Of a DNA stretch of 54,944 nucleotides, positions 4,275-54,944 are shown one piece after another. How positions within the stretch are numbered: position 1 is the first letter of the stretch; every line of letters starts with the position of its first letter. The stretch comes from a virus (lineage: Duplodnaviria; Caudoviricetes): positions 1-54,944 of the IMG/VR virus record IMGVR_UViG_3300043465_001344; one strand, 5' to 3'. Under the pieces are notes generated by a model that made no database searches, had not been told where the DNA came from, and was given only the letters and a program-made list of their open reading frames with translations. A program made the position numbers and the translations under genes.

Positions 4275-4356
4275 TGCGCCAGAACGAGCTGGGCCACCCT
4301 TAAAACGAGGCGGCGAGACGCCAGTCTGGCTAGCAGCGCGATAGTGCGCAACAGTT

Positions 4357-4908
4357 ATGACTTCCACTGGAAAGCCTGAGCCTGTGACCGACGAAACTTT
4401 ACCCGTTAAAAAGCGGGGCCGCCGACCACAGTCGGTGCTCAAGAGGCTGGGCCGAGAGGGCCAGCTGGACGAGCACAGCTGGCCGGACCGGGCCTCGCCC
4501 TGTTGGGATGGCCCCGAGCTGATCAGCTACGGCGGCACGATGTGCCGAACCCCTCGCGCGTGCCTGAACGATACGATGCCGACACAGCTGACCAGCACGC
4601 AACAGTTGCAGTCGGTGTGCAAGCGCGACGGGTGTATCAACCCCCATCACTACCGGATTGCCGACCGGCGGAACCGGTCGGGCGAGCCGACCGTCCCCCT
4701 GCCCGACTGGGCGTTCATGCAGCACGTCCTCGAAGACGCGGAGCGTGAGAAGAACAAGCCACCCCAAGAGCGCCTCATGGAGTGCGCCATGGACGTGAGA
4801 CTGGCCCTGAACAGCGACCCTGACCTGAGCGACGCGGATCTCGCCGCGCGCTTCCAACACGCCTACACTGAGGAGCTAATCCGTGAAGCAAGAACCGTCG
4901 AGCTGTAA
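4357..4908 (+). CDS. hypothetical protein with a His-Cys/HNH-like Zn-binding loop
   Basis: PCW...CKRDGCINPHH resembles the C-x4-C-x-NPxH core of phage HNH/His-Cys proteins; basic N-terminus KKRGRRP. Confidence 0.5.
   Translation: MTSTGKPEPVTDETLPVKKRGRRPQSVLKRLGREGQLDEHSWPDRASPCWDGPELISYGGTMCRTPRACLNDTMPTQLTSTQQLQSVCKRDGCINPHHYRIADRRNRSGEPTVPLPDWAFMQHVLEDAEREKNKPPQERLMECAMDVRLALNSDPDLSDADLAARFQHAYTEELIREARTVEL
4398..4411 (-). repeat. palindromic motif, copy 5 (reverse orientation, inside a CDS)
   Basis: TTTACCCGTTAAAA is the reverse complement of TTTTAACGGGTAAA. Confidence 0.75.
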
Positions 4909-5287
4909 CATTCTCCGAAAAGCCCAAGACCTGATCCGCGACCCGCGACACTGGATCGGGGGCGACCTCTCCGAGAAACGCGCCATCGACCCAGCCTACG
5001 AGGCGTGCATCGTCTCCACCCTGCTCCCCGACGGGCGCTACGCCCCAGCCGAAGTGGGCAACGCTGACTGCTTCTGCGCCGGCCTCGCGATCACGCGAGC
5101 CTGCCGCGACCTCGGCGTCTACAGCGGCCCGACCCGCGATCTCGCCGTCCGCGCTATGAACGAGGCGGCCATCGACAGGTCCCAGACTGGCATCAGCCAG
5201 CTGGGCCAGTGGAACGACAACCGGACCCGCACCCATGACGAGGTCATGGCTGCGTTCGACGCCGCGATCAGCCGGGCCTCGGCCTGA
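4883..5287 (+). CDS. DUF6197-like phage protein
   Basis: CFCAGLAI...WNDNRTRTHDEVMAAFDAAI signature; GAGGAG SD. Confidence 0.6.
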   Translation: MKQEPSSCNILRKAQDLIRDPRHWIGGDLSEKRAIDPAYEACIVSTLLPDGRYAPAEVGNADCFCAGLAITRACRDLGVYSGPTRDLAVRAMNEAAIDRSQTGISQLGQWNDNRTRTHDEVMAAFDAAISRASA

Positions 5288-5410
5288 AGGCACTACGCCC
5301 TCCAGCGAAAGGAGCACACCATGCCCCCGCCGGACTAAAGCCCGGCACTCAACCACCACCGGCCCGGGCTCCCCCAGCCCGGGCCACCCACCCTCACAAG
5401 GACCAAGCCT

Positions 5411-5866
5411 GTGACCCCACCCATCCTCGACCCCCAGAAAGTCGCCGCGGCCAGCCTTGAGGCCTACTACGCCGGCACCCTGTGCGCCCAGACCAACTTC
5501 GGCGGCGACTACGGGTCCGCGAGCGCCTTCTACATCACCGATGACACCAACTACCCCAACGCCCGCTGCGCTATCGGGGCCGGTATGACCGCCGAGCAAG
5601 CCCAGCTGGCCGAGCGCCGACCGGGCGTCCGCGACTACAGGATCTCCGGTCTCATCCTCGCTGGCCTGTTCCAGACCACGAGTATCGAGGCGATGAACGA
5701 TCTCCAGCTGCTTCAGCAGCTGCACGATATGTGGAGCACCCAGCGCATCAGCCGCACGCTCACGCCCCGCCCGGGCACCGCCGAAGAAACCCGGTTCGTC
5801 GAGTTTGCGACGGCCATGGCCAACAACACCGTCACCGACGAAATGCGCGACAGGCTGCGGACGTGA
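5411..5866 (+). CDS. hypothetical protein
   Basis: AAGGA SD, RCAIG motif, coupled to the next gene. Confidence 0.65.
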   Translation: MTPPILDPQKVAAASLEAYYAGTLCAQTNFGGDYGSASAFYITDDTNYPNARCAIGAGMTAEQAQLAERRPGVRDYRISGLILAGLFQTTSIEAMNDLQLLQQLHDMWSTQRISRTLTPRPGTAEETRFVEFATAMANNTVTDEMRDRLRT

Positions 5867-27821: not shown

Positions 27822-28058
27822 ATGTTCGACTACCTCATCTCGTTCGCCTACGGCGCAGGTTTCTTCGCTGCCCTGATCGCCTTCTACATCCTTGTCCTCG
27901 TCGGCTTGGCCTACACCAGCGGTTGGCGGTCCCGCATCTGGCACAGCTGGCCCCACTCGGTGCGCGGCATCGTCAAGATCGTGGGCTGGACCGCTCTGAT
28001 CGTCTTCTTCGTCGTCCTCGCTGCGGTGCAGGGCGCTGACATCCGCGACACGATCTGA
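27822..28058 (+). CDS. two-TM membrane protein
   Basis: GGAG SD, two hydrophobic helices. Confidence 0.65.
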   Translation: MFDYLISFAYGAGFFAALIAFYILVLVGLAYTSGWRSRIWHSWPHSVRGIVKIVGWTALIVFFVVLAAVQGADIRDTI

Positions 28059-40509: not shown

Positions 40510-40524
40510 ATACTCGCCTTTGCC

Positions 40525-40556
40525 CCCTAGCGGTGGGAGTTTCTCCCCCGCTAGGG
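40525..40556. promoter_or_regulatory. stem-loop upstream of nrdA
   Basis: CCCTAGCGG-TGGGAG-TTT-CTCCC-CCGCTAGGG, with no U tract. Confidence 0.45.
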
Positions 40557-40582
40557 TCCGCTCCCCACTCTGGAGAACCACC

Positions 40583-42403
40583 ATGCCCGATCCATCGGCC
40601 GTCACCCTGTGCCCTGAGCGCGACAACCTGCTCACCGACTTCGGCAAGAAGACGATGCGAGATCGGTATCTGCTCCCGGGCGAGAGCTATCAGGATATGT
40701 TCGCCCGGGTCGCCGCAGCCTACGCCGATGACGACGCCCACGCGCAGCGCGTCTACGACTACATCTCGCAACTCTGGTTCATGCCGGCGACACCTGTGCT
40801 GTCCAACGGGGGCACCGACCGGGGCCTGCCCATCAGCTGCTTCCTGAACGCCGTCGGTGACAGCCTCGACGGCATCCAGCATATCTGGAACGAGAACATC
40901 GCTCTGGCCTCCAACGGCGGCGGGATCGGCACCTACTGGGGCGGTGTGCGCTCCATCGGCGAGAAGGTGAAAGGCCGCGGCGTGACGAGCGGCATCATCC
41001 CCTTCATCCGGGTCATGGACAGCCTGACGCTGGCGATCAGCCAAGGTAGCCTCCGGCGCGGCTCGGCCGCCGTCTATCTCGACGTCCACCACCCCGAGGT
41101 CGAGGAGTTCCTCGAAATCCGCAAGCCGACCGGGGACGCCAACCGCAAGGCTCCGAACATCCACCACGGCCTGAACGTCACCGACGCCTTCATGGAGGCC
41201 GTGCGCGACCGCCGGACCTTCGACCTGCTGTCGCCCAAGACCGGCGAGGTGATCAAGACGGTGGACGCCCGCAAGCTGTGGCAGAAGATCCTCGACACGC
41301 GGCTCCAGACCGGGGAGCCCTACCTGATCTTCATCGACCGGGTGAACGACGCGATGCCGATGCACCAGCGCCAATCGGGGCTGCAGGTGCGTCAGTCGAA
41401 CCTCTGCACCGAGATCACGCTGCACTCGGGCAAGGACCACCTCGGCGTGGACCGGACCGCCGTCTGTTGCCTCGCCTCCGTCAACGCCGAGACCTTCCTC
41501 GACTGGCAGGATGAGCCCCTGTTCATCCCCGACATCATGCGCTTCCTCGACAACGTGCTCCAGAGCTTCATCGACAACGCCCCTCCGCCTATGGCCAGCG
41601 CGGTCTACTCGGCCATGCGAGAACGGTCAGTCGGCCTCGGCCTGATGGGCTTCCACTCGTTCCTGCAGAAGCAGGGACTGGCCTTCGAGGGACCGATGGC
41701 CAAGTCGTGGAACAAGCGTCTGTTCCGTCACCTACGCCGGCAGGCCGATCAGGCCAGCGTGGATCTGGCGGTCGAGCGCGGCCCCTGCCCAGATGCGGCG
41801 GATCATGGAGTGATGGAGCGGTTCAGCCACAAGCTGGCCATCGCGCCGACCGCCTCGATCTCGATCATCTGCGGCGGCACGTCGGCGGGGATCGAACCCA
41901 TCCCCTCGAACATCTACTCGCATAAGACCCTCTCCGGTACCGTGGCGGTCATGAACCCCTACCTCGACCAGCTGCTGCAGGACGTGTGGGAGCAACGCTT
42001 CTCGGGCACCCCTCGCACACAATGGCTCGCCGAACAATGGGACAGCGTCCTTGAAGCCGACGGCTCCGTGCAGCATCTCGACTGTCTGAACGAAGACGAG
42101 AAGAAGGTGTTCCGCACCAGCTTTGAGTTGGATCAGAGGTGGATCGTCGAGCATGCGGTCGACCGCACCCCCGACATCTGTCAGGCGCAGTCGGTCAATC
42201 TCTTCATCCCCGGCAACGTCAACAAGTGGGACCTGCACATGCTGCACTGGACCGCTTGGGAGCGGGGCATGAAGTCCCTCTATTATCTGCGCTCGCGCTC
42301 TGTCGCTCGCGCCGCCCACGCCGGCTCCGACAAGGCCGCCTCCCCCTTCCCCATCGCGGCTCCGGCCCCGGTTCAATACGATGAGTGCCTCGCATGTCAG
42401 TAG
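40583..42403 (+). CDS. nrdA: class I ribonucleotide reductase alpha subunit, no ATP cone
   Basis: PATPVLSN, PISCFL, QSNLCTEI, AIAPTASIS, KSLYY, C-terminal CLAC. Confidence 0.95.
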   Translation: MPDPSAVTLCPERDNLLTDFGKKTMRDRYLLPGESYQDMFARVAAAYADDDAHAQRVYDYISQLWFMPATPVLSNGGTDRGLPISCFLNAVGDSLDGIQHIWNENIALASNGGGIGTYWGGVRSIGEKVKGRGVTSGIIPFIRVMDSLTLAISQGSLRRGSAAVYLDVHHPEVEEFLEIRKPTGDANRKAPNIHHGLNVTDAFMEAVRDRRTFDLLSPKTGEVIKTVDARKLWQKILDTRLQTGEPYLIFIDRVNDAMPMHQRQSGLQVRQSNLCTEITLHSGKDHLGVDRTAVCCLASVNAETFLDWQDEPLFIPDIMRFLDNVLQSFIDNAPPPMASAVYSAMRERSVGLGLMGFHSFLQKQGLAFEGPMAKSWNKRLFRHLRRQADQASVDLAVERGPCPDAADHGVMERFSHKLAIAPTASISIICGGTSAGIEPIPSNIYSHKTLSGTVAVMNPYLDQLLQDVWEQRFSGTPRTQWLAEQWDSVLEADGSVQHLDCLNEDEKKVFRTSFELDQRWIVEHAVDRTPDICQAQSVNLFIPGNVNKWDLHMLHWTAWERGMKSLYYLRSRSVARAAHAGSDKAASPFPIAAPAPVQYDECLACQ

Positions 42404-43509
42404 ACCGCCCCATCCCCACCTACACCTTCGATGACTTCGGTAACCTCAACGGCGTCATCGGCGAGAGCTCGCCCACTATGGTGCAGGTCAAGCAGGAGGC
42501 CATCCTCGCCATCCATGAGCTGATGCCGGTGGGGCTCCGTACGCCGGGGCCGTTCAAGCCGATGCGGTACCCATGGGCCTACGCTCTGTGGAAGCTCCAT
42601 GAGGAGATCCACTGGCTGCCCAAGGAGGTGCCTATGGGCGAGGACGTCATGGATTGGGAGCGCAACCTGTCGCCGGGTGAGAAGAACCTCCTGACGCAGA
42701 TCTTCCGGCTGTTCGTGAAGTCCGACGAGGAGGTCAACAACAACTACATGACGCGCCTCGGGGGCCTGTTCAAGCCGACCGAGATCTGCATGATGCTGTC
42801 CGGCTTCGCCGGCCGCGAGCCTGTCCACATCGACGCCTACAGCGTTGTGCTGGAGACCGTGGGCATGCCGGACAGCGACTACGCGGCCTTCGCCCAGTAC
42901 GAGGCCATGCAGGCCAAGGTGGATCACTGGTCGACCTTCAAGGTCGACACCGACGCCAACATCCTGAAGACGCTGGCCATGTTCGGTGGCTTTGCCGAGG
43001 GGCTCCAGCTCTTCGCCTCGTTCGCCATGCTCATGAACTTCCCCCGGCACGGCAAGATGAAGGGGATGGGCCAGATCGTGTCGTGGTCGGTGCGTGACGA
43101 GAGCATCCACTGTCAGGGCGTGATCCAGCTGTTCCACGAGTTCGCCAACGAGACCGGCGCGCTCACGCCGGAGGTGCGCCAGAGCATCCTCGACACGCTG
43201 ATGGTGGTGATCGCTCAGGAAGACGCCTTCATCGATCTGGCCTTCGAGCTGGGCGACGTGGAGGGCATGACCGCGGACGACGTGAAGCGATACATCCGCT
43301 TCATCGGCGGCTGGCGGATGCGCCAGCTGGGGCTGGCCGACCCGTTCGGGATCACCGAGCACCCGCTGCCGTGGCTGCAGGTCATGCTGTCGGGTCAGGA
43401 GCACGCCAACTTCTTCGAGGCATCGCCGACCGAGTATTCGAAGGGTGCTTCCGAGGGGACCTACGACGAGGTCTGGGATCGGTTTGACGCCCTGCCCCGG
43501 GTGGGGTAG
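42394..43509 (+). CDS. nrdB: class I ribonucleotide reductase beta subunit (start uncertain)
   Basis: KPMRYPWA, EPVHIDAY, EGLQLFASF, RDESIH, HANFFE. Confidence 0.93.
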   Translation: MSVDRPIPTYTFDDFGNLNGVIGESSPTMVQVKQEAILAIHELMPVGLRTPGPFKPMRYPWAYALWKLHEEIHWLPKEVPMGEDVMDWERNLSPGEKNLLTQIFRLFVKSDEEVNNNYMTRLGGLFKPTEICMMLSGFAGREPVHIDAYSVVLETVGMPDSDYAAFAQYEAMQAKVDHWSTFKVDTDANILKTLAMFGGFAEGLQLFASFAMLMNFPRHGKMKGMGQIVSWSVRDESIHCQGVIQLFHEFANETGALTPEVRQSILDTLMVVIAQEDAFIDLAFELGDVEGMTADDVKRYIRFIGGWRMRQLGLADPFGITEHPLPWLQVMLSGQEHANFFEASPTEYSKGASEGTYDEVWDRFDALPRVG

Positions 43510-43693: not shown

Positions 43694-44086
43694 TCAATGA
43701 TTTCCAGTGGAAAGATCGAGGTCGGGGGTGAACGGCTCCGGTGTCGCTAGCTGCTCCAGAAGGGGGGTTCGCGTCGAGGTCGAAGGACGGAAGTGTCGAG
43801 CATCTGGGCACTCTCCTGTTACCTGATCGATGGCCGTCAGGGTCAGGCAGACCCTGCGAAGCTGCCGTCGGCAATCGCGTCCGGCACCGGTCCGCTCCGT
43901 TTCGTTGATCGCAGTGGTGACGTCGTCGGCACCGGCCGCCCACGGCCGGGGCTCACCATCACACGCGAATAGTTCAGCGGGGAGCTTCGTCCGCTCCACC
44001 GGGGGAGGGACCTGCACCCTCTGCGGCCAGATCGTCGAGCAGCTGGCGACGGCGAAGCTCGAAAGCAGGACTAGCAGCACACGCAT
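43694..44086 (-). CDS. o-spanin (Rz1-like lipoprotein)
   Basis: MRVLLVLLSSFAVAS-C lipobox, Pro-rich, overlaps the 3' end of the i-spanin in another frame. Confidence 0.75.
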   Translation of the reverse strand: MRVLLVLLSSFAVASCSTIWPQRVQVPPPVERTKLPAELFACDGEPRPWAAGADDVTTAINETERTGAGRDCRRQLRRVCLTLTAIDQVTGECPDARHFRPSTSTRTPLLEQLATPEPFTPDLDLSTGNH

Positions 44087-44402
44087 TGGTCTTCTCCACA
44101 GCGGACAGGGCGGCGATACGATCCAACAGCGCGGTCTGCGCGGCCCGGTCATCGCTCGACCCTTGTACGATAACCGGAATGGCCCGGTCACGATATTCGA
44201 TTTCCTTGATCGCCAGATCACCCTTCACTGCGTCGAAGGCCGTCACGATGACCGTGGGGCACTTCTCCAGCGTCTGGAAGCGGATGTCGGCGGCACAGGC
44301 CGCCCACGCCTCAGTCGCCTGCCAGTCGCGCAGCTGGTAGCCCCCGCCGAAGCCGGTGGCGAGCAGGAGGGCCGAGGCCAACAGGTAGATCCAGATCTTC
44401 AC
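43974..44402 (-). CDS. i-spanin (Rz-like)
   Basis: N-terminal TM (GGYQLRDWQ), helical periplasmic part, downstream of the endolysin. Confidence 0.75.
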   Translation of the reverse strand: MKIWIYLLASALLLATGFGGGYQLRDWQATEAWAACAADIRFQTLEKCPTVIVTAFDAVKGDLAIKEIEYRDRAIPVIVQGSSDDRAAQTALLDRIAALSAVEKTNACAASPAFELRRRQLLDDLAAEGAGPSPGGADEAPR

Positions 44403-45613
44403 CGACGTGCGCTCCGCGTGATCTCGTAGATGCGCTTGGCGAACACCAGCCCGGTGCCGAGGGCCATGAGCCAGCCCGCCCCTTGGGTGAGCCAGCCCAT
44501 CTCGATCTCGACGCCCATGTTACGCGCCTCACGCGCGGCCTCGACGACCAGCGGAGCGACGGTGACGAGACCGGTCAGCCACAGGGTGACCGACTTGCCG
44601 GCGTTCTTGTGCTCTTCGACCAGCGGGATGGGGCTGACGTCGGCCTCGGCCGGGGTGGCCACCGCGTGGGTGGTGACCGGGTAGACGCCGGCCCACATCT
44701 GGGCCTCGTCCTCGCGACGCCGCACGAGACCGTTCAGAACCTTGCCCTTGGACCGCGTCCACCGGCGGAACTGCGTCTGGATTTCGTGCTGAGGAGCGAC
44801 GGCGTTGACCTTCTTCAGCAGGGTCGAGGAGGTGAGATTGCCCTCCCCACAGTTGAAGGCGAAGGAGACCAGAGCGTCGTACTGCCACTGCTGCAGGGGC
44901 ACACGGACCAGCCGGCGCACGGCGGCCTCGAAGCGGGAGAGATCCCTCAGCAGGAGACGGTCGGCCTCGGTGAGGCTGATGATCTGCCCGATCTTCACGT
45001 CGGTGCCCGTGTGGCCGTAGCCGATGGTCAGGGTGCCCAGCACCTTGTCGCCAGCCTTCAGCGGGTGGTTCGGCCGGAAGTCGTCGTAGGCCCGCGCCAT
45101 GAACTTCTCGTGGGCCTTCAGGAAGCCCAGAGCCTGTTCGCTGATCGACAGCCCCATTGAGGCCGTGTTGGTCTCGCGGGTCATCGGGGCCTTGCCCCAG
45201 AGCCGCCAGAGCGGCAGGCCGCCGCGGCGCTCGTCCATGCGGCTCGTCTGCAGGATCTTGTGGGGGCCGGCCATGTCGTCTCGCACGCGCCGCGGCGGGC
45301 CGAAGGTGTCGCCGACCGACCACCGCTCGCCGTTGTCCAGCTCGACGATGCCGATCATGTGGTCGATGGCCGCACCGGTCGAGCTGACGAGCGCACGGTA
45401 GAGCTGGGTGCGCGGCACGCCCCACCGGAACAGGATCTCCAGCGTGGTCATCGACCAGTCGTCACAATCGCCTCGGAAGCCGATGCCCTTCTCGACGTCG
45501 TCGGCGAAGGACTTCCAGTTGTCGTGCAGGGCGGGGTCCGCCACATAGACGGCATACTGCTTGACCAGTCGGTCAGCCTCGAGGATCAGGCGATTGTTGA
45601 CGTCGGGTTTCAT
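44399..45613 (-). CDS. endolysin: transglutaminase-like Cys protease (C93/BTLCP-like) + GH24 lysozyme + C-terminal TM helices
   Basis: GDCDDW / DHMIG / GDT triad; HEKF..AYDD..TIGYGHT, QYDALVSFAFNCG, GLVRRREDE; two C-terminal hydrophobic helices. Confidence 0.8.
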   Translation of the reverse strand: MKPDVNNRLILEADRLVKQYAVYVADPALHDNWKSFADDVEKGIGFRGDCDDWSMTTLEILFRWGVPRTQLYRALVSSTGAAIDHMIGIVELDNGERWSVGDTFGPPRRVRDDMAGPHKILQTSRMDERRGGLPLWRLWGKAPMTRETNTASMGLSISEQALGFLKAHEKFMARAYDDFRPNHPLKAGDKVLGTLTIGYGHTGTDVKIGQIISLTEADRLLLRDLSRFEAAVRRLVRVPLQQWQYDALVSFAFNCGEGNLTSSTLLKKVNAVAPQHEIQTQFRRWTRSKGKVLNGLVRRREDEAQMWAGVYPVTTHAVATPAEADVSPIPLVEEHKNAGKSVTLWLTGLVTVAPLVVEAAREARNMGVEIEMGWLTQGAGWLMALGTGLVFAKRIYEITRSARR

Positions 45614-45768
45614 CAGGTCGGCTCACAGAACGGGTCTTCCGGCTCCAGCGCGCATCGGGTGCTGTCCTGTTGATGAGCGTGTGGCACTGCCGCGCCGGGG
45701 CCGGAAGGGGGTTGCTCCGGCCCACAGGAGGCAAGCAGGAGAAGGGGGATGATGATGAAGTATTTCAC
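45613..45768 (-). CDS. 51-aa lipoprotein (not in the ORF track)
   Basis: Hand translation MKYFIIIPLLLLAS-CGPEQPPSGPGAAVPHAHQQDSTRCALEPEDPFCEPT; GTGA overlap upstream and TGATG overlap with the endolysin. Confidence 0.7.
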   Translation of the reverse strand: MKYFIIIPLLLLASCGPEQPPSGPGAAVPHAHQQDSTRCALEPEDPFCEPT

Positions 45769-46139
45769 AGGCCCAGATCCACGTTGAACAGTTTCGAGAT
45801 GCCCGCAATGGTCAGGGCGGCGACGACGGGGCCACCGACCCAGCTCATGACCCCAATGAGGACGTCGTTGCGACCTTGGGTGCGGGCCAACTGGACCGCG
45901 TGATCTGCTTGCCGTCCGTCGATGTCGTCGAGACGGCTCTTCAGGGTCTCGGCCACGCTCTCGACGCTGTTAACGCGGTGGCCGACGCTGGCGACCCCGT
46001 CGAGCTTCGTGTGCAGGATCTGCGCGTCCTCGCGCTGCCGCTGGTCCATCTGGTCCAGACGCTGAACCACGGGCAGGATGAGCCTGTCGATAAGGGGCAG
46101 GATCACGTTCTGCATCTCATTGGGGTCTGCCACGCTCAC
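45765..46139 (-). CDS. holin-like / XhlA-like protein (coiled coil + C-terminal TM)
   Basis: Position in the lysis cassette; single C-terminal hydrophobic helix. Confidence 0.5.
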   Translation of the reverse strand: MSVADPNEMQNVILPLIDRLILPVVQRLDQMDQRQREDAQILHTKLDGVASVGHRVNSVESVAETLKSRLDDIDGRQADHAVQLARTQGRNDVLIGVMSWVGGPVVAALTIAGISKLFNVDLGL

Positions 46140-46928: not shown

Positions 46929-49900
46929 TCAAGTGGTTTCGGTGATCGAGGCGGTGACGAGCAGAGTGACGGTCTTGCCGGTGCCGGCGTCGGTCGCAGC
47001 ACAGGCGAAGGTGGCCGACTTGGTCTCCCCAACCCCGACCGACCCGGTGAAAGCGGTGGCCGCGCCTGTCGATGAGGTGGCGCTGATCCCAGTGTCTCCG
47101 CTGATCCGGTACCAGCTGTAAGACACCGACCCACCCGCGCCCGTAGGCGTCACGGTGACGGTCGAGGTCGTGACAGACCCGGCCCCGGAGCGCGAGCCCG
47201 AGCGGTTGGTGTGGCTGGCCGTAGCCCCGAAGCCCCCCGCGGCGCTCGTCACCGCCGTCAGCAGGTTGCTATTGGTGCTGTCGTAGAACTGGCGGCCATC
47301 CGTCAGGCCGGCCGCCTTGGCCGCAGCGACGCCAGCGTGGGTCGGAAACGTCTGCGTCGCCAGTAGGGTCTGGCCCGCGTAAGACGAAGCGACGCCTTGG
47401 TCCGTGCGGAAGTTGGCGCGGGTGGCGAGAGTGGCCTTGGCCTCGGTCTCCCAGCAGTTCTCACCGAAGACCGCGTCCTGCCCGATGGAGCCTGCGCCAA
47501 TCGTGTAGCTGTCTGCGCCGCGAGCGGCGTTGGTCAGGGTGACGGTCCAGCCGTCGTCCCAGTCGGCGACCGTGCCGGGCGTGTGGCCGACGCGGACGTT
47601 CTTCACCGAGACCTTCGAGTAGGGCCACGTCGTGCTGTTGACGAGGCCAATGTCCACGGCGGGGCGGCCCGTCGCCGGGTCCTTGTGCATGTAGACGTTC
47701 TGGAAGCCAAAGCGATCTCCGGTCGCCTTGACGGAACTGTTGATCCAGCCGTGCGAGCCGCCGCCGTAATCGTAGGTGTAGCCGTAGATTTGGTACACCA
47801 CAGCACCTCCGCCGCCGTACCGCTGGACCTCCACCTCAAAGGAGATCATGGCGTAGTTCCACGTCACGGGCAGGACGATGCGCCACGCACCCATGTCGGC
47901 GCTGCCGGAGTTCTCGTTCGTGCCTCCGACCGGAAGGGCAATGTGCGTGACGTTGCCCTGCTTGCGGTCGTTGAAGACCTGAACGTCTGGAGCGGTCGCG
48001 GCAGCGGTCTGGCCGGAGATTGAGGAAGCGGTGCCAAGGCTGGTGATCAGGCCGGTGCGGCCCACAAGCGCCCCGCCCGTATCGTCATAGGTGTTGTGGC
48101 CGATACGGGCGACTTGGTTGGCCGGTCCCACCTGAATGTCGGCAAGCTGGTTTCCGAAGTACACCTGCGATGCTGCGAAGCCGAGGGTCTGGCCAGCGGC
48201 GGCGGCGTAGGTGTAGCGCACAACGCCGTTCTGGAGCCACTGAACCCGGACGCCGTCGTAGACGACCGACCAGACGTCCGTGAGCGCCCATGCTCCGGCA
48301 GCGGCCAACGTGGCGAGTTCCCCGATGCCCCCGGCGTAGGCCCGCATAGCTTGAGACCCCGGAAGCCCGGTCGTGTAGCACGAGTAGTTGATCGTATTGT
48401 AGTCGCCGCCAAAGCCGGGGGCAGCCAGACCCGCCATGAAGTAGGGCTGGACGCTCTCGCCTACACGGAACGAGCAGTAAGCTGCGCCAACATACTTGTC
48501 GCGCGACGACACGCCGCCGCCCCAAGAGCCGTGCGAACCACCAACCTTGGTCGCGGTGCTACCCGATACGACAGTCTCCGAGTTGTACGGGACCAGCGCC
48601 GCGACCGCTGCGGTGTTCTCGGTCCACGCGCCGTACTGGATATCAACGATGGCGGCGGGGAAGGTCGAGGCCGCTGAGTTGTAGAAGTCGATGATCTTCG
48701 GCCACAAGGTCTGGCCCGCCGGGGCGGGGGACGAGCAGTACCTGACGCCGTCAATGTCCACGAACACCGTCGAGCCGTCGTAGCCCAGCGTCATGCGGGA
48801 GGCGAGCGTCAAGACCGGGATCGTAGCGGACGCGAGGGTCGTGTCACCGCTGTAAAGGGCGAGGCTACCCGGCGAACCCCCGGCGGTGACGTACCGGCAC
48901 CAGTATTTCTGAGTGCTCGTGTTGAACGTCGTGGCGTCGTCATCAAGGGCAAGCTGCGTGTACCAGCCGCCTCCGGCGGCCACCGACAAGAGGCTGCTGC
49001 GGATATAGGCCGACCCACGCTGCGCCGATCCGACAGCCCCACCTTCGAGAGCCCCGTGTGTTCCCGACTTGCTGACGCTGTTGCCGACCACCGTCGAGAA
49101 AGAGCCGAGGGGGGTCAGGATGCCGCTCGTGCCCGCATTGGGGCTGGGGCGCGTGGCTCCGGTCACACCCGCGAAGTCGGAGTTCGTGGCAAGCACGGAT
49201 TGGCCCGTGATTGAAGCAGCGGTGCCGAGGCCGGTTACAAGGGCCGCCTCGGTGGCGAGGCTGCCGTCCGCCCTCCGCAGACTTCCGCCCACGGTGGTCA
49301 CTTCAACGATACGGAGGCCTTGGATTTCTACTGCGCCGGACGCGCCGTTGTAGTTCGGCAGAGCGCCCACCGCCATGGTGACGGCGTTGGCCGGAATGGT
49401 CTTGCCGGTGCCCGCGCCGAAGACGCGGCTGTAATAGGTCCACGTCGCCGGGATGGTCGTGCCCTGCGGCCAGTAGAGCCAGTACGATCCATCGCCATTG
49501 ATCTCCGAGCCCGCGCCGTCACGAAGGCTGGCCAGCCCGTAGGCGGTGTTGGTTGTACCGGTGCGGCGCATCCAGCACTCGATCATGTAGGTCTTGGCCG
49601 CGTCCACCGGCACACGACGAGCCCCAATCAGGGTTCCCCCCGTGAGGCGCATCGCGGTGGTGGCAACCTCACCGTCCGTGATCGAGACGAAGCTGCCCAC
49701 CGCTCCAGCCCACGCACTGGGGTCAGCGCCGGACGGGTCTTCGGTGAGGCTGTCCCCCTGCGTGACCGGGGCGCGGTTCGTCAGGTTGGTCGTCCAGTCC
49801 GCACCCACCGTGGCGTTGTTGGCGGGGCGGGTTGCGCCCGTGACCGAGGCGAAGTCAGATGAAGTCGCGGTAGCGGCCTGTCCGCTGATCGAGGCGGCGA

Positions 49901-52900
49901 CACCTTGGTCCGTACGGAAGTTGGCGCGCGTAGCCACGGCCCCGCCAGCTTGCTCCAACAGACCCTCGCCGAAGACCTGATCCCCGCTGCGGGGGACATC
50001 CACGATGCGGACCCAGTAAGGGGTCGTCATGTTGACGTAGGTGCCGGAGATGGCGGTGTTGTTCAGACTGATCGACCAGCCGGTTGCCCAGTCGTTGACC
50101 TGCGACGCGTAGCCGACCTGCACGTTGCGGATGGTGACATTCGGGTACTGCCAGAGATCACCAACCGAGCCGATCCAGATGGTCGCCTTGCCTGCGGCGT
50201 TGAAGCCAAACTTGACCGGGCGGGAGAAGGCGCGGGGACCGTTGAACGTCGCGGTGACGTTCGCCCACCAGCCGTTACTCCCCGTGTTGTAGTGGTGACC
50301 GGCGACGGTGTATGTGCTGGTGCGACCGGTAGAGTAATCGTGAACCACCACGTCGAACGTGATCATCGGCGAGACCGCGTTCCAAGCGAACGGGAAGACG
50401 ATCTCAAGCTGGCCGACTTGGTTCGAGGTCGGAATGTTGAGTTGCCCCCCGTCCGGCTGCTGGATCAGCTTGACGCCGCCCTCATAGCGGTCGTTCAGGA
50501 CGCGGTTGGACACCGCCGTCGCGCCCGGACCTTGGCCAGTGATGGCCGAGGCCGTCCGGGTCTCAGTGACGTTGGCGTTGGCCTCCTGCGGGCGCAGGAC
50601 CTCCATCGTGACGCCGCCGCCCCCAATGTAGTTCACCTTGTCGGCGGTCCGACCGGTCAGAGCGTCCAAAGGGCGGGTCGTGATGTTCGACAGGCTGTTG
50701 AACGCCCCGGTCGTGTTGTCGAGGTTCTGCGAGCGGTTGCCGACAATCGTGGGGGTCAGACCCCCCGGGATGGTGGCCGTAGCCCACGCGGTCTGACCCG
50801 CGATGGTCGCGGCGACACCAAGGCTGGTGACGGCGACCGCGTCGGTCAGGACCGCGCCCGTCTCCCGGTAGACCAGATCCCCCAGCCTGCTGGCGCGGCG
50901 AATGATCGGCTCGGCGAAGTAGCCGTAGCCGGTGTTGTAAGCCTCGAACCAGAAGCCCATGCGGACGGCGTTCGACGGCGGGGTGATCAGCGCGGTGACC
51001 CGCGTGGGGCTGGTCGTGGTGTTGCTACCGATGATCGGAGTGCTGCTGATCAGGGCTCCCGCTCGGTCGTAGAAGGTCGCGTACGCCGTGGCAGCTGCAG
51101 CGGGGACGGAGGAGAATACGACGGCACTGACGTAGTACACCCTACCCGGCTCAACGGGGGTCGAGCCCTCGTAGTTGCTCCGAACGGCCCGAGTGGAGCC
51201 TGCTGTGGTGATCAGGACGTAGTTCGTGGACGCGACGTCGAGAGACAGGCCCGACGAGGGGTTGAAAACGAAACTCCCCGGCGTGGTGATCCACAGAGAA
51301 GCGTCCCCCGACATATCGCTGTCGCGGAACATGTTGGACGTGTCGCGGATGCTCTGCCTGCTGGGGGTGACCGCCCCGGCGTCGATATGCGTTGCTGCAA
51401 CCGTGCCCCGCGTGGCCAGTACGCCTTGACCGGTGATGGCCGCCGCGGTCCGGCTCTCGGTGACGTTGGCACCAAACTCACCGGGGCGGAGCGAACTGAC
51501 GGACGCGCCACCGGTGCCGGGGTACAGCATCCGTCCCGCGTTGAGGTAGTTCCCATCCACATCGCCACCTTGCAGGCGGTTGGCAATGACGCCTGAAAGC
51601 TGACCGTCGCCGGAGATCGTGTTGGCCGTCGCCAGACCGCCCTGCCCGGTGAACGAGGCCGCAACCCCTTGAACCGTGATCAGATCGGCGTCGCCTCTAC
51701 GAGCACCGCTGCTGTCGCGCAGACCGGTATTGATGAACGTCGCGGCTGGACCGGACGTGTCGATCTGGTCGTACCGGGCAAGATACCAGTCGAAGGAGGT
51801 GTTCGCTCCGTTGTGGACCGCGAGGTGGCCCACGCTGGAGGGCGACCCTCCCGGCGCACCAGTGAAGACCTCGAAGACGTAAAGCTGCCAGCTTCCCGTG
51901 CCCTCCATGCTGGTGAGCGGGGTGACCGTGCTCCCCACCCCCATGGAGTTGCCGTGCCACGTCAAGGTGCGGCCAACAGGGATCAGCGCCATCACCTTGT
52001 ATAGGATGCGGGAGTTGAGCGTGTACTGGCCGGGGCGGGCTGCCCCGGTCGTGTACGTCAGACCCTGATAGACGCCCCCGAAGCCGGGCGACGGGTTGCT
52101 GTTCGGCGTCCCGGTGCCGTCGTAGCTGACCTTGAGGACGTACCGGCTATTGTTCGGGGCGTTGCTCTCGTACTCGACCGCAATCGTAACCTTCGCCCCA
52201 CCTGCGTTGTTGTAAACGCTGTAGTTGGCCGCACTTCCGTCAGCAAACTCCGGGTTCAGGGCGAGGTTCGTGCCCGCGATGCCGCCCATCATTTCGAGAG
52301 GCCTGACGCGGGCGTTCAACCCCGATTGCAGGTAGCCGTCGGCGAAGATGGCGGTGTTCAGAGCGTTGACGGAGCGGCCCGTGTAGGTCGCCCAATCAGT
52401 CTGGCCGGTGATGGCCGAGGCCGTGCGGGTCTCGGTGACGTTGGCTCCAGCCTCGCCGGGGCGAAGGCTCTCGACCGTTGCGCCTCCGGTGACGTAGGTC
52501 AGCTGATCGGCCGTCCGGCCGGTCAGGAGGGACAGACTGCGAGTGTTGATGTTCGACAGGCTGGTCAGGTTGCCGGAGGCGTCCAGATTGCCAACACGGC
52601 CTTGGACGGTCGCCGGCGTGAGGGTGCCATAGGTTGCCCAGCCGGTCTGGCCGGTGATGGCCGAGGCCGTGCGGGTCTCGGTGATGTTTGCACCGCGCTC
52701 CAGCACGGCACGGTCGGCCCCGTGCGTGACGTCGAAGCTGACCCCGGAGGCGTTCACCGCGGCCACGCCGTTGGTCACGAGGCCACCGGCCGCGCTGACC
52801 AGTGTGTAGGTCCCGTTCGTCATCACCCCGGTGACGCGGTTCGCGCCGCTGGCGTCGGTCAGCGGGATGGTGCCGATCAGTGTGGCCCCGACCGTGGGGT

Positions 52901-54944
52901 TGCTGACGTAGTTGACGGCCCAGACCCCTTCGGTTCCGGGCAGAGGCTCCACGCTGATCATCATGTCGAAGGCGCTGTTGGCCCCGATGTAGACGTCCAG
53001 ATAGCTTTCGCCGGTTCCCCTCGACAGACGGGCCTGAGTGATCGGGCAGCCCGTGCCGTTGGAGACAATGCTGATGGTCCCATTAACGTCCCAGTCGCGG
53101 GAAACGTCCAGCACCAGAGCCGAGGGGGTCGCCCCACCGCCGTTGAAGCCCAGCGTAACCCGCATCGCACCCCGGCCAACGGAGGAGACCACGCGGGCCA
53201 CCCGGTGCCAGCGGGCGCTACCTGCCGCAACGGCCACAGACGATTGGGTGCGGGGGGACAGGAATGTCGCGACAGGTGTGGCGACCTGCGACGGAGTGTA
53301 GCTGCCGTAGGTCGCCCATGAGGTCTGACCCGTCACCGAAGCGGCCACACGGCCTTCGGTGACGTTGGCTCCAGCCTCGCCCGGGCGAAGGCTTTCGACC
53401 GTGGCTCCACCCGATACATAGGTCAGCTGATCGGCCGTCCGACCGGTCAGGAGGGACAGACTGCGAGTGTTGATGTTCGACAGGCTGGTCAGGTTGCCAG
53501 AGGCGTCCAGATTGCCAACACGGCCTTGGACGGTCGCCGGCGTGAGGGTGCCATAGGTTGCCCAACCGGTCTGGCCCGAGACGGAGGCCGCGACGCCCTG
53601 ACTGGTGACCAGCACGGGGTCGGTGGACAGCACGTCCCCACCCGCGACGGTGACGTAGGTGGGTGTGGCGGTGCCAAAGTAGTTGAGTGCCCCGACGTTA
53701 CCGGTCCGGTCCACCGGCTTGCCCCAGTAGTAGTAGGGGACCCCCGCCGTGACGTTCGTGTCGGCGAAGATCGACCCAGTGACATTGGGTCGGTACAGGT
53801 CGGCCTCACCCGTGCCCGCGGGGCTGGTGCCCGTAGTGTTGCGGTAGAGCTTCAGGTGCGAGTAGTCGGCGTCAGCGTAGGGCGTCCACGCCAACACGAT
53901 CCGGCGGGCGAGGGCAGTGATGGTGATGCTGGTCGGGTTGCTCGGCGCGGTCACGTCGCCACCGGCGGCCACGGAGGCCGAGGTGGTGGACCATGCGGCC
54001 GAGCGAAGCCCAGTACGCCCCACAGCCTTGACCTTGACGGTATAGGTCCGGCCCGGCTGCACCCGCAGGTTCTTGATGGAGGCGACCGGAGACCACTCGG
54101 TCCACGGGGTCACCCCATCGTTGATCTCGATGTCGTAGCCAGTGGCGGCCGAAACAGCCGTCCAGCCTGCCGTCAGGTTCGTGACCTGCGTCCCATCGGG
54201 GTTGATGGTCGAGGCGAACGAGAGGGTGGGCGTGCCGCTGACGGTTGCGGGGGCGGTGGCCGGCAGGTCCACGTCCGCGATGCCGCCGCGCGTGACGCTG
54301 CTCTCCGCCGACCAGAACAGGTCCGAGCTGGAGAACTTGTCGTAGTAGGCCGCCTTGATGTAGCGCAGATCCCCATCCGCGAGGGGCACGAAGAAGCTGC
54401 CCTGATTGGCGTCCTGAGCCACGGCGGTGACGCCGCTGACCGTGGAGACGCTGAGCTTCGCACCGACCACGTCGCGCTCGGTGGAAGGCGACAGGACGAC
54501 GTTGACGCCGCCCATGGTCGCCGTGACCGTGATGGTCGGGGCGAACGGCGCGGGGTTGTTGATCGACAGCTCGACCGGAGGGGAGAGATTGTCGTCCTGA
54601 TCCACGGCGTAGAGCGTGAACGTCAGGTCGCGGGTCGCGGTGCCGAGCCCGTCGTCCCGGTTCATCAGGAAGTCGTAGCGGTACTCCAGCTCCGTCGCGA
54701 GCTCGACGATCCGCAGCTGGGCATCCGACGAGGTGTCGCTGATGACCAGCCGGTAGTTCTTGAAGTTGGGCGAGGCCGGCGGGGCGTCCCACATCACCTT
54801 CGGGCTGAGGTCTTCGAACACGGTGGGCAGCAGCCCACCCACGAGGGTCAGGTTCGTGGGCGGCGCGACCGGGCGGGCGTCGCCCGTCACGTTGTAGGTC
54901 AGCGTCAGGGGCAGGCTCTCGCGGCCCCGGATGTCGATGGCCAC
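46929..54944 (-). CDS. giant modular tail fibre / host-specificity protein (5'-truncated by the window)
   Basis: FnIII-like domains (YTVKVKAVG), repeated GANVTETRTASAITGQ linkers, several beta-sandwich/CBM-like modules (NLALNPEF, NMFRDSDM). Confidence 0.85.
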   Translation of the reverse strand: MAIDIRGRESLPLTLTYNVTGDARPVAPPTNLTLVGGLLPTVFEDLSPKVMWDAPPASPNFKNYRLVISDTSSDAQLRIVELATELEYRYDFLMNRDDGLGTATRDLTFTLYAVDQDDNLSPPVELSINNPAPFAPTITVTATMGGVNVVLSPSTERDVVGAKLSVSTVSGVTAVAQDANQGSFFVPLADGDLRYIKAAYYDKFSSSDLFWSAESSVTRGGIADVDLPATAPATVSGTPTLSFASTINPDGTQVTNLTAGWTAVSAATGYDIEINDGVTPWTEWSPVASIKNLRVQPGRTYTVKVKAVGRTGLRSAAWSTTSASVAAGGDVTAPSNPTSITITALARRIVLAWTPYADADYSHLKLYRNTTGTSPAGTGEADLYRPNVTGSIFADTNVTAGVPYYYWGKPVDRTGNVGALNYFGTATPTYVTVAGGDVLSTDPVLVTSQGVAASVSGQTGWATYGTLTPATVQGRVGNLDASGNLTSLSNINTRSLSLLTGRTADQLTYVSGGATVESLRPGEAGANVTEGRVAASVTGQTSWATYGSYTPSQVATPVATFLSPRTQSSVAVAAGSARWHRVARVVSSVGRGAMRVTLGFNGGGATPSALVLDVSRDWDVNGTISIVSNGTGCPITQARLSRGTGESYLDVYIGANSAFDMMISVEPLPGTEGVWAVNYVSNPTVGATLIGTIPLTDASGANRVTGVMTNGTYTLVSAAGGLVTNGVAAVNASGVSFDVTHGADRAVLERGANITETRTASAITGQTGWATYGTLTPATVQGRVGNLDASGNLTSLSNINTRSLSLLTGRTADQLTYVTGGATVESLRPGEAGANVTETRTASAITGQTDWATYTGRSVNALNTAIFADGYLQSGLNARVRPLEMMGGIAGTNLALNPEFADGSAANYSVYNNAGGAKVTIAVEYESNAPNNSRYVLKVSYDGTGTPNSNPSPGFGGVYQGLTYTTGAARPGQYTLNSRILYKVMALIPVGRTLTWHGNSMGVGSTVTPLTSMEGTGSWQLYVFEVFTGAPGGSPSSVGHLAVHNGANTSFDWYLARYDQIDTSGPAATFINTGLRDSSGARRGDADLITVQGVAASFTGQGGLATANTISGDGQLSGVIANRLQGGDVDGNYLNAGRMLYPGTGGASVSSLRPGEFGANVTESRTAAAITGQGVLATRGTVAATHIDAGAVTPSRQSIRDTSNMFRDSDMSGDASLWITTPGSFVFNPSSGLSLDVASTNYVLITTAGSTRAVRSNYEGSTPVEPGRVYYVSAVVFSSVPAAAATAYATFYDRAGALISSTPIIGSNTTTSPTRVTALITPPSNAVRMGFWFEAYNTGYGYFAEPIIRRASRLGDLVYRETGAVLTDAVAVTSLGVAATIAGQTAWATATIPGGLTPTIVGNRSQNLDNTTGAFNSLSNITTRPLDALTGRTADKVNYIGGGGVTMEVLRPQEANANVTETRTASAITGQGPGATAVSNRVLNDRYEGGVKLIQQPDGGQLNIPTSNQVGQLEIVFPFAWNAVSPMITFDVVVHDYSTGRTSTYTVAGHHYNTGSNGWWANVTATFNGPRAFSRPVKFGFNAAGKATIWIGSVGDLWQYPNVTIRNVQVGYASQVNDWATGWSISLNNTAISGTYVNMTTPYWVRIVDVPRSGDQVFGEGLLEQAGGAVATRANFRTDQGVAASISGQAATATSSDFASVTGATRPANNATVGADWTTNLTNRAPVTQGDSLTEDPSGADPSAWAGAVGSFVSITDGEVATTAMRLTGGTLIGARRVPVDAAKTYMIECWMRRTGTTNTAYGLASLRDGAGSEINGDGSYWLYWPQGTTIPATWTYYSRVFGAGTGKTIPANAVTMAVGALPNYNGASGAVEIQGLRIVEVTTVGGSLRRADGSLATEAALVTGLGTAASITGQSVLATNSDFAGVTGATRPSPNAGTSGILTPLGSFSTVVGNSVSKSGTHGALEGGAVGSAQRGSAYIRSSLLSVAAGGGWYTQLALDDDATTFNTSTQKYWCRYVTAGGSPGSLALYSGDTTLASATIPVLTLASRMTLGYDGSTVFVDIDGVRYCSSPAPAGQTLWPKIIDFYNSAASTFPAAIVDIQYGAWTENTAAVAALVPYNSETVVSGSTATKVGGSHGSWGGGVSSRDKYVGAAYCSFRVGESVQPYFMAGLAAPGFGGDYNTINYSCYTTGLPGSQAMRAYAGGIGELATLAAAGAWALTDVWSVVYDGVRVQWLQNGVVRYTYAAAAGQTLGFAASQVYFGNQLADIQVGPANQVARIGHNTYDDTGGALVGRTGLITSLGTASSISGQTAAATAPDVQVFNDRKQGNVTHIALPVGGTNENSGSADMGAWRIVLPVTWNYAMISFEVEVQRYGGGGAVVYQIYGYTYDYGGGSHGWINSSVKATGDRFGFQNVYMHKDPATGRPAVDIGLVNSTTWPYSKVSVKNVRVGHTPGTVADWDDGWTVTLTNAARGADSYTIGAGSIGQDAVFGENCWETEAKATLATRANFRTDQGVASSYAGQTLLATQTFPTHAGVAAAKAAGLTDGRQFYDSTNSNLLTAVTSAAGGFGATASHTNRSGSRSGAGSVTTSTVTVTPTGAGGSVSYSWYRISGDTGISATSSTGAATAFTGSVGVGETKSATFACAATDAGTGKTVTLLVTASITETT
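52432..53576. repeat. 221-bp direct repeat inside the tail fibre (52432-52652 and 53356-53576)
   Basis: Near-identical DNA encoding GQTGWATYGTLTPATVQGRVGNLDASG...GEAGANVTE, offset 924 bp. Confidence 0.9.

Follow-up and report, generated by a model that had tools for sequence, protein, structure and literature searches.

The window analysed here is an entire virus record of IMG/VR, from a lake-water phage (IMGVR_UViG_3300043465_001344; 54,944 bases, linear class, with a CheckV completeness estimate of 65% and a GC content of 65%), and the gene in question is an open reading frame (ORF) of 404 codons plus stop near the meeting point of its two arms: plus-strand genes run up to the ribonucleotide reductase (RNR) genes (40520..43509), minus-strand genes come in from the other end, and the arms converge near 43,600. 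The product consists, in this order, of a domain resembling the bacterial cysteine protease LapG, a short linker, a GH24 muramidase, a disordered spacer and a C-terminal hydrophobic hairpin (table 1), and its gene overlaps that of a small lipoprotein on the upstream side. The initial annotation had described a single 404-residue ORF, which is indeed present, on the minus strand, a detail then left unsaid; it starts with ATG and, judged by a GC content at third codon positions (GC3) of 0.91, it is typical coding sequence for this record. The analysis presented below, which rests on sequence comparison and structure prediction, bears on the function of a widespread family of phage genes, in that the LapG-type (BTLCP) domain of phages seems to be part of the lysis machinery.

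Table 1. Features of the 404-codon gene and of the adjoining genes (positions in the window).
Feature	Position	Strand	Basis
Endolysin ORF, 404 aa (stop codon included in the coordinates): protease module, linker, GH24, disordered spacer, hydrophobic hairpin	44399..45613	-	
BTLCP/LapG-like cysteine peptidase domain, residues 1-142	45188..45613	-	AF2, Foldseek, VIA-align, profile, invariant residues
Predicted catalytic triad, Cys50	45464..45466	-	catalytic triad position
Predicted catalytic triad, His85	45359..45361	-	catalytic triad position
Predicted catalytic triad, Asp102	45308..45310	-	catalytic triad position
Putative calcium ligands D26, D49, D51 (residues of the N-terminal domain)		-	alignment to LapG
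Linker between protease domain and GH24, residues 143-158 (16 residues)	45140..45187	-	
Linker motif R146-E-T-N-T-A151-S152, candidate self-cleavage site	45158..45178	-	conservation
GH24 muramidase domain, residues 159-307, catalytic E169, D178, T196	44693..45139	-	Pfam, PHROG, PDB, conservation
Disordered spacer, residues 308-340; a conserved P-x-P-L-V-E-E ... K-S stretch leads up to the first hydrophobic helix	44594..44692	-	
Hydrophobic hairpin, residues 342-404: helices 342-365 and 372-403, basic tail KRIYEITRSARR	44402..44590	-	hydropathy, AF2
Lipoprotein gene, 51 aa, lipobox LLLASC (Cys15), Gly at +2, Pro-rich stalk	45613..45768	-	ORF and homologues
124-aa ORF, one C-terminal transmembrane segment, coupled to the lipoprotein gene	45765..46139	-	
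i-spanin candidate, 142-aa ORF, N-terminal transmembrane segment, GTG start	43974..44402	-	position and topology only
o-spanin candidate (uncertain), overlapping ORF, signal peptide and lipobox VASC	43694..44086	-	

A LapG-like domain at the head of a muramidase with a probable membrane anchor

The N-terminal domain contains the motifs GDCDDW (G48-W53), DHMIG (D84-G88) and GDT (G101-T103), in which the initial annotation had recognized the Cys-His-Asp triad of transglutaminase-like proteases of the C93 type. Conservation bears this out, C50, H85 and D102 being invariant, along with D26, D49 and D51, in 21/21 full-length proteins, that is, the window protein and 20 relatives (P0001-P0018, P0020 and P0021; 41-97% identical to it), which form the alignment used throughout (P0019, of 351 residues and only 74% query coverage, was left out of it). 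Nor do the Cys, His and Asp vary when the window protein is aligned with 20 standalone homologues (21/21). The structure of residues 1-142 was predicted with AlphaFold2 (AF2) from an alignment of 15 such domains, with a predicted local distance difference test score (pLDDT) of 92.4 and a predicted TM-score (pTM) of 0.88, and in the model Cys50 opens helix 50-63 and His85 opens strand 85-91. All six matches returned by Foldseek from the PDB at E <= 0.001 are LapG chains (E 2.1e-4 to 6e-4, TM-score ~0.6 on the query), and VIA-align, run over 48,161 representative chains, placed LapG (4fgo_A) at the top with a Z of 12.1 and a root-mean-square deviation of 4.0 over 131 residues, the runners-up being other transglutaminase-fold proteins at Z <= 8.2 (the pseudomurein endoisopeptidases PeiW, 6.4, and PeiP, 6.1; NlpC/P60 proteins 4.2-4.7). 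The domain thus models as the transglutaminase fold on which the earlier proposal had been made to depend.

Searching 177,635 PDB sequences with a profile of the 15 domains also retrieved LapG only, as two distinct sequences at weak scores (E 0.085 and 0.67), in an alignment that pairs Y23-x-x-D26, G-D-C-[D/E]-D-[W/Y]-A and H-M of the two families. Cys and His are aligned to those of LapG, and the equivalence of D102 is by spacing only; the spacing within the triad is 35/17 residues here and 34/15 in the family member HvyA. D26 aligns with D111 of Pseudomonas fluorescens LapG, 24 residues before the Cys, and D49/D51 match the acids that flank the Cys. In LapG-type enzymes calcium is needed beside the active site, the Cys-flanking D316 and E318 of DvhG being required (PMC13090378), and D111 of the P. 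fluorescens enzyme, the Asp of its 'calcium binding loop', is a calcium ligand (PMC4359373). On alignment and model together, the domain is best described as a divergent BTLCP-type enzyme with an apparently intact active site and probably a calcium site. A match of the 404-residue protein to DUF6634 (E 0.11) was disregarded. No export signal precedes the domain: helix 1 stands at the very start of the chain, and, once the C-terminal 95 residues are set aside, hydropathy over 19 residues peaks at 1.24. With no N-terminal hydrophobic segment and both hydrophobic segments at the C-terminus, the protein is not a signal-anchor-release endolysin.

The rest of the chain agrees with the earlier description of a GH24 muramidase followed by two hydrophobic helices. 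PF00959 matches residues 188-303 (E 7e-39, 133.4 bits, cut-off 22.3), phrog_7 (endolysin) matches at E 2.8e-48, and 13 solved lysozymes or endolysins match by sequence (best 9kbq_A, E 1.5e-23), E169, D177/D178 and T196 being invariant in the 21 aligned proteins. In the spacer, where pLDDT falls below 50 at residues 315-331, V332, E334 and S341 are invariant. The same stretch is found in GH24 proteins of ~230-270 residues that have the spacer and the hairpin and are devoid of the protease domain (P0025 and P0027, 48% and 38% identical to the window protein, respectively). Two hydrophobic segments and then a net-basic tail occur in 21/21 proteins. In the window protein the Kyte-Doolittle maxima are 1.74 (proximal) and 1.12 (distal), the reverse of most relatives, in which the distal segment is strongly hydrophobic (up to 2.7), and a tblastn search of 50,697 phage records with its C-terminal 100 residues gave no match. 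The hairpin is taken here as a membrane anchor, possibly with a hole-forming role; anchoring, release on depolarisation or hole formation could each be its task. The GH24 and anchor parts are ordinary for a known, poorly understood class, C-terminal endolysin anchors being already in print. As a side observation, residues 155-378 (GH24 and part of the C-terminal region) match, by tblastn, positions 2501-3148 (plus strand) of locus L001, from Pseudomonas phage Flu_PA14_4 (PQ287279.1), in a frame just past the annotated holin; since the record annotates only opposite-strand 'hypothetical proteins' at that place, the endolysin of this phage seems to be unannotated.

That the three parts belong to one chain is evident from their recurrence. 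In a collection of 5.8 billion proteins, ~20 proteins of ~400 residues, all metagenome-derived, match at 83-100% query coverage and 39-97% identity, so that other carriers of the architecture, which the initial annotation had proposed to look for, do exist. Each of the 20 aligned relatives is a single ORF of ~400 residues, uninterrupted across all three parts, and two contigs from other samples of different studies (X7 and X14) cover positions 44300-45800 in one piece, with 5 and 43 substitutions relative to the window, respectively, and zero inserted or deleted letters. No stop codon separates the domains in any of these, and the three-part fusion is genuine, not an assembly artefact. The stretch, or part of it, was found in 20 runs among those listed, from 15 studies, mostly of lake water and wastewater; six of the 20 may be the source sample itself.

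The linker between the first two modules is predicted to be without secondary structure (pLDDT 67-80), and R146 and A151 are invariant in it. In the family its motif takes the form R-x(0-2)-[T/A]-[N/T]-[T/S]-A-[A/S/N/T] (in brief, R-x-T-x-T-A-[A/S]), the variants being [T/S]-A-A in 11/21, [T/S]-A-S in 6/21, including the window protein, and T-A-[N/T] in 4/21. The site recognized by LapG-type proteases is [T/A/P]AAG, which is cleaved between its alanines (PMC13090378). In homologues in which the domain is fused to a peptidase of family M15, the same place is occupied by K-R-T-T-A-A-S (L005), S-R-S-T-A-S-S (L007) or Q-R-T-T-A-S-R (L014); standalone domains end before the motif (P0121), GH24-and-anchor proteins without the domain begin after it (P0025), and it is absent from P0261, the one fusion in which the catalytic Cys is lost. 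Because the motif resembles [T/A/P]AAG and tracks fusion to a domain with intact Cys, self-cleavage after the Ala of T-A-[A/S] may reasonably be expected. The initial annotation had envisaged self-release from the membrane anchor, a suggestion that the position of the motif does not favour: the sole conserved LapG-like site (T150-A151-S152) lies between protease and muramidase, and no comparable motif is present in the disordered residues 308-340 between GH24 and anchor. A possible internal start had been proposed as well. M144 (45184) does exist, with AAGG 5 nt upstream; since Met occupies this alignment column in only 5/21 proteins, such a start is not a feature of the family.

A self-cleaving linker raises the question of whether the domain might be nothing but a self-removing pro-domain, the muramidase staying inactive until periplasmic calcium triggers one cut after the Ala of T-A-S and no other substrate being involved. 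The motif is kept in GH24 and M15 fusions and lost in the Cys-less P0261, and the calcium-ligand positions are conserved, as this explanation would have it; it is nevertheless improbable, as at least 72 of 145 representatives of the domain stand alone with nothing attached to release, relatives made of GH24 and anchor work without it (P0025, and LysAP of Acidovorax phage AP1), and the conserved lipoprotein partner described in the following would be left unexplained.

A lipoprotein partner and recurrent association with endolysins

The lipoprotein encoded upstream ends in a disulfide-loop motif, C39-ALEPEDPF-C48, and C15, C39 and C48 are kept in all of 12 aligned homologues, none of which (0/12) has Asp at position +2. 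The general form of the loop, (E/D)-Q-C-x-x-(Q/E/N/D)-P-x(3-4)-(W/F/G)-C, was surveyed in 32 entries (the window and 31 loci), of which 29 are usable (L014 and L032 lack 5' DNA, and the match in L003 is dubious) and some are near-duplicates (L008/L009/L021, L011/L012/L033, L010/L030, L017/L027 and L022/L024). In 29/29 it lies 52-72 codons before the catalytic Cys (D-C-D) of the protease domain. Two arrangements are found: in 22/29 the loop is encoded by an ORF of its own in a different frame, a stop codon intervening ahead of the domain, and such ORFs, where checked, encode small lipoproteins with signal peptide and lipobox; in 7/29 it is in frame with the domain as part of one longer protein, which in five cases has its start inside the locus, a length of 220-249 residues and a hydrophobic, signal-like N-terminus. 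Loop and domain share a chain also in at least 27 of the 145 representatives, 25 of these 27 with an N-terminal hydrophobic signal-like segment, in some with a lipobox. By hhalign, the 12 lipoproteins and 20 single-chain forms match over the loop with a probability of 96.7% (E 3.8e-10). VIA-align superimposes residues 1-139 of the model onto LapG residues 90-238, and the single-chain profile puts the loop region, weakly (E 0.0094), at the start of the LapG chain, so that the loop appears to match in position the ~40 LapG residues that precede the part matched by the window domain. A single-sequence search of the PDB with one secreted form (L028) returned nothing useful. The lipoprotein is regarded as the partner module of the protease domain, encoded apart from it in some phages and joined to it, as one secreted protein, in other phages and in bacteria.

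Two other explanations of the small gene were considered and set aside. A frameshift could join lipoprotein and domain; separate, translationally coupled proteins are more likely, because the overlaps are in differing relative frames from locus to locus and no slippery site is present at the TGATG where the lipoprotein stop and the endolysin start overlap. Nor is the lipoprotein an o-spanin, in that L005 and L007 carry, downstream, an additional overlapping pair of spanin candidates. The partnership could also be a purely physical one, the N-terminal domain being a non-catalytic docking module that binds the outer-membrane lipoprotein and lets the inner-membrane-anchored enzyme bridge the periplasm; LapG itself is held by its partner via a Trp loop (PMC4359373), no Asp at +2 is seen in the 12 aligned lipoproteins, and P0261 has lost the Cys. 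Yet the triad and calcium-ligand positions are invariant in 21/21 proteins, and the triad in a further 20 standalone forms, and both the standalone and the M15-fused forms have no membrane anchor with which to bridge anything. Docking without catalysis is the least credible of the explanations weighed here.

The domain is associated with endolysins in several ways. It is N-terminal to GH24 in the window protein, its 20 aligned relatives and the distant P0229 and, with no anchor following, in P0019 and P0023; N-terminal to Peptidase_M15_4 in L005, L007 and L014, the L005 protein (P0266) matching the endolysin family phrog_465 at E 1.8e-41; and combined with an Enc34-type catalytic domain (7q47_A, E 1.3e-26) and a C-terminal anchor in P0158. 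As a separate gene it directly follows a GH24 gene and a lipoprotein gene in L016 and L019, and in L006 it lies two genes upstream of a GH108 endolysin. This last locus, a phage contig of 70% GC, appears to hold a full cassette (3853..5823, plus strand), in which the lipoprotein and the standalone protease domain are followed by a 138-residue protein with two transmembrane segments, a 122-residue protein that combines an N-terminal membrane segment with a coiled coil, and an endolysin of GH108 and PG_binding_3 domains. That the C-terminal hairpin of the window protein might be a homologue of the separate two-transmembrane protein was considered and dropped, the two having no similarity. In L017 (4395..5215, minus strand) and L022 (2073..2899, minus strand), a 177-residue protein that has a membrane segment at its N-terminus forms a spanin-like pair with an overlapping lipoprotein of 101-104 residues; as these are opposite-strand neighbours of secreted single-chain protease genes, such genes, too, are found beside lysis-type genes.

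A maximum-likelihood tree of 66 domain cores, made quickly and not the outcome of a finished careful search, groups 15 of 16 GH24 fusions in one clade (SH-aLRT 98) with three standalone rows nested within it. The M15 pair falls among other standalone forms and P0158 and P0229 fall outside both groups, the M15, Enc34-type and P0229 fusions thus all lying outside the main GH24-fusion clade; therefore, fusion to endolysins is not the accident of one lineage. What is new here, along with the upstream loop motif and the LapG-like motif of the linkers, is that a single protease domain recurs in fusions with three unrelated catalytic domains of endolysins (GH24, Peptidase_M15_4 and Enc34-type) or adjoins endolysin genes. 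An endolysin with a BTLCP module, a split lipoprotein partner or a LapG-like linker is not mentioned in the accessible portions of the literature on transglutaminase-like endolysins and on PF06035/BTLCP/COG3672.

The company of wall hydrolases invites another explanation, namely that the N-terminal domain is itself a second peptidoglycan-cleaving domain (an endopeptidase, amidase or isopeptidase whose target would be stem peptides, cross-links or protein-peptidoglycan links) of a two-activity endolysin, the lipoprotein being an outer-membrane activator or adaptor. Fusion to three kinds of peptidoglycan hydrolase domain and location in lysis cassettes speak for it, papain-like Cys-His-Asp domains are common lytic modules (PMC10318531), and the transglutaminase-fold PeiW and PeiP are among the structural matches; a wall substrate is also compatible with a LapG-like fold, because NlpC/P60 shares the papain-like superfamily. 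On the other hand, the closest structure by a wide margin is the protein-cleaving LapG, with NlpC/P60 far below it in Z, and none of the 21 proteins has a Pfam match at E <= 1 to the NlpC/P60, CHAP or amidase families. Furthermore, the domain adjoins a complete endolysin in L006, L016 and L019, so that it is not needed there as the only lysin. On balance this is a possible, if unlikely, alternative.

Distribution and genomic surroundings

Of 1.84 billion representatives searched by profile, 383 match the domain at E <= 0.001, 163 of them at E <= 1e-10. The 145 representatives mentioned above (P0121-P0265) were sorted by a script using simple patterns, according to which at least 72 are short standalone domains; 28 more have an N-terminal extension that does not match the strict loop pattern, and the catalytic-motif pattern is unmatched in 18. 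The nearest clusters in the ESM Atlas are phage-dominated PF06035 proteins of 123-155 residues (score 0.93), and the top matches in BFVD are phage proteins of 117-178 residues, including the 'Transglutaminase' of Caulobacter phage CcrPW and COG3672 proteins of uncultured phages. tblastn of the N-terminal domain against the same 50,697 phage records gave no match, a scan of genome contigs found one locus, and a PF06035 search of the record's own genome found only the 404-residue gene itself. In one homologue, P0235 (493 residues), the domain is split by an intein-like insert of ~350 residues that starts with C-L-T-G-D, ends with H-N and sits immediately before the catalytic Cys of the D-C-D motif.

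In one survey of river viruses, BTLCP genes were reported as the most frequent 'auxiliary' genes, and roles in host adaptation were proposed for them (PMC11283719); a link to lysis cassettes, a lipoprotein partner and endolysin fusions are not mentioned in the main text of that survey, in so far as it was available. Their abundance would suit a further explanation, by which the lipoprotein/protease unit remodels the cell surface in the manner of LapG or HvyA, shedding or blocking a surface component (of adhesin, capsule or S-layer) that serves as phage receptor or traps progeny, and is fused to endolysins only for delivery at lysis. The known BTLCPs act on surface adhesins (LapG) or on capsulation with an effect on phage susceptibility (HvyA), and in most loci the pair directly follows tail-fibre genes. 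Against this, no substrate gene is linked to the unit, and repeated covalent fusion to wall hydrolases together with loss of the export signal points to action at lysis, not during infection. Such remodelling, which overlaps with the explanation favoured below in that the trans substrate of the latter is left open, is regarded as distinctly unlikely, more so than a second peptidoglycan-cleaving activity.

In the window, the cluster is tightly packed. The 124-residue ORF, the only other membrane protein of the cluster, overlaps the lipoprotein gene by GTGA (the lipoprotein start being GTG), the latter overlaps the endolysin gene by TGATG, and the endolysin stop overlaps the GTG start of the 142-residue ORF by GTGA. 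This last ORF and the one overlapping it are i- and o-spanin candidates, respectively. The true length or even the reality of the second is uncertain, its GC3 outside the overlap being 0.59 against ~0.85 for the genes of the record, and neither candidate resembles the spanin candidates of L005. No PHROG match at E <= 0.01 was found for the N-terminal domain, the lipoprotein, the spanin candidates or the 124-residue ORF, and at the same threshold Pfam matched neither the lipoprotein nor the spanin candidates nor the 124-, 59- and 143-residue ORFs.

Elsewhere in the window, a 78-residue ORF at 27822..28058 (plus strand, GC3 0.89) with two strongly hydrophobic segments (Kyte-Doolittle ~2.5) has the size and shape of a holin and is the only small ORF with two transmembrane segments; it lies among early genes on the other arm, far from the lysis cluster. 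Upstream of the cluster, a tail-fibre-like ORF of more than 2,671 residues (46929..54944, minus strand) runs off the end of the window and contains long internal repeats, a segment of ~100 residues beginning GQTGWATYGTLTPATVQGRVGNLDASGNL being present twice. RNR genes converge on the late-operon end in the window and also in the distant loci L008, L010 and L031 (40-42% GC), a gene order that suggests one large phage group with a very wide range of GC content.

A proposed split peptidase delivered by an endolysin and its closest known relatives

The explanation favoured here, with a probability of about 0.45, is that the gene encodes a three-module membrane-anchored endolysin carrying the catalytic half of a split, LapG-type, probably calcium-dependent periplasmic peptidase, the lipoprotein being the other half. 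It builds on the fold, the invariant triad and calcium-ligand positions, the GH24 domain, the hairpin, the coupling of the genes, the existence of single-chain forms and the repeated fusion to endolysins. The hairpin would tie the endolysin to the inner membrane, as in the class of LysAP, Siskin, Enc34 and M4Lys. Of the two pieces of the peptidase, that with the loop must be exported, because disulfide loop and lipidation are both acquired in the periplasm, where it would be oxidized as an outer-membrane lipoprotein; the catalytic piece, which has no export signal, would travel with the endolysin. Enzyme would build up on the cytoplasmic side and, when the inner membrane is breached at lysis, would enter the periplasm, either free or fused to the endolysin, so that calcium and the loop of the lipoprotein could complete or position the peptidase beneath the outer membrane. 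If active, the peptidase would cut next to small residues, its first target probably being its own linker, after the Ala of R-E-T-N-T-A-S, by which it would be freed from the muramidase, and would then cut an envelope target, possibly the S-layer protein, adhesin or tether that the initial annotation had proposed, the glycan strands being left to GH24. The trans substrate may be a protein link under the outer membrane or a peptide or isopeptide bond of the peptidoglycan, both of which are compatible with the data.

A more specific version of the split-peptidase explanation, put forward as a tentative and somewhat doubtful elaboration, is that the protease fires only at lysis: the loop piece would be exported early, the cytoplasmic half would be completed and activated by calcium on entering the periplasm via the holin or the anchor route, and, having cut itself after the Ala of T-A-S, it would sever the protein link; holin, endolysin and spanin would then be joined by a fourth enzymatic step in Gram-negative phage lysis.

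Several observations weigh against a split peptidase delivered in this way. With PF06035 the window protein scores 16.3 bits (E 0.0089), below the Pfam gathering cut-off of 27 bits; as its homologues score higher (15 of the 21 full-length proteins match at E <= 1, the best at 1.2e-5, and P0158, of another architecture, reaches 31.2 bits, above the cut-off), it is a divergent relative of PF06035 rather than a curated member. More generally, sequence matches of the domain to LapG are weak. As to the linker, exact TAAG occurs in only 1/21 proteins (P0007), the window having T-A-S, and the linkers of P0158 and P0229 fit the motif poorly. No holin was recognized in the cluster by Pfam, PHROG or a look at hydropathy; no mechanism is known by which a large N-terminal domain could be moved across a membrane from a C-terminal anchor, a point made for Enc34 (PMC8943055); and standalone forms exist without any anchor. 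Finally, since the loci share the gene order tail fibre, lipoprotein, domain and convergent RNR genes, part of the synteny possibly reflects common descent and is not independent evidence.

With this in mind, the split-peptidase explanation offers a role for phage BTLCP genes, tied to lysis through three kinds of fusion, a position in lysis cassettes and a dedicated lipoprotein partner, and it offers an answer to the question of how a catalytic half without signal meets an exported half, namely by the route of the endolysin. An active protease would give the lysis of some Gram-negative hosts a proteolytic step beyond the holin-endolysin-spanin models, and engineered lysins might benefit from such a module. 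For researchers of phage lysis and of LapG, the pair would provide a compact system in which to study calcium- and partner-gated activation of LapG-type proteases, as well as C-terminally anchored endolysins, whose export is unexplained.

The best structural match among known systems is LapG/DvhG (BTLCP, MEROPS C93, PF06035; PDB 4FGO, 4FGP, 4FGQ and 4U65), with the same order of Cys, His and Asp, acids on either side of the Cys and an Asp located 24 residues before it, all at calcium-ligand positions, and a target motif, [T/A/P]AAG, that the window linker resembles. Unlike LapG, the window chain has no signal peptide, scores below the Pfam cut-off and is fused to a muramidase and a membrane anchor, and its domain is devoid of the ~40 N-terminal residues of LapG, to which the separately encoded Cys-loop lipoprotein would correspond in position. 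No LapD-like partner or large adhesin turned up in the window, neither having been specifically searched for. HvyA of Caulobacter belongs to the same family, with the triad C192, H226 and D241 against C50, H85 and D102 here (compared by spacing, not alignment). It is a periplasmic BTLCP of alphaproteobacteria that blocks capsulation and affects phage susceptibility, with a tested triad (PMC4241560); in contrast to the window protein, it is encoded by the host, carries a Sec signal, is subject to cell-cycle regulation and has no link to lysis genes. The short BTLCPs of phages ('Transglutaminase' of CcrPW, COG3672 proteins in BFVD) have the same domain and the size of the window N-terminal domain; they are treated, differently from the interpretation given here, as host-adaptation genes in the available text of PMC11283719.

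Among endolysins, LysAP shares with the window protein a GH24 domain with an E-D-T triad, a C-terminal hydrophobic domain and a basic tail. When expressed, it depends on its transmembrane domain for lysis (PMC8879335). It differs in its length of 227 residues, in having a single predicted transmembrane domain and in carrying no protease module at the N-terminus. Siskin, Enc34 and M4Lys have a two-helix C-terminal domain of predicted N-in/C-in topology and reach the wall by an unexplained route (PMC6498227, PMC8943055 and PMC7143992); their catalytic domain is another, and none of them, as described in the accessible parts of these reports, has a protease module, whereas P0158 joins such a module to exactly the Enc34-type catalytic domain and anchor. 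PeiW and PeiP (PDB 8JX4 and 8Z4F), which are encoded by viruses of methanogens, are transglutaminase-fold cysteine enzymes that cut a peptide bond of the cell wall; in spite of the distant structural similarity to the window domain and the different type of wall, they provide a precedent for the lytic use of this fold.

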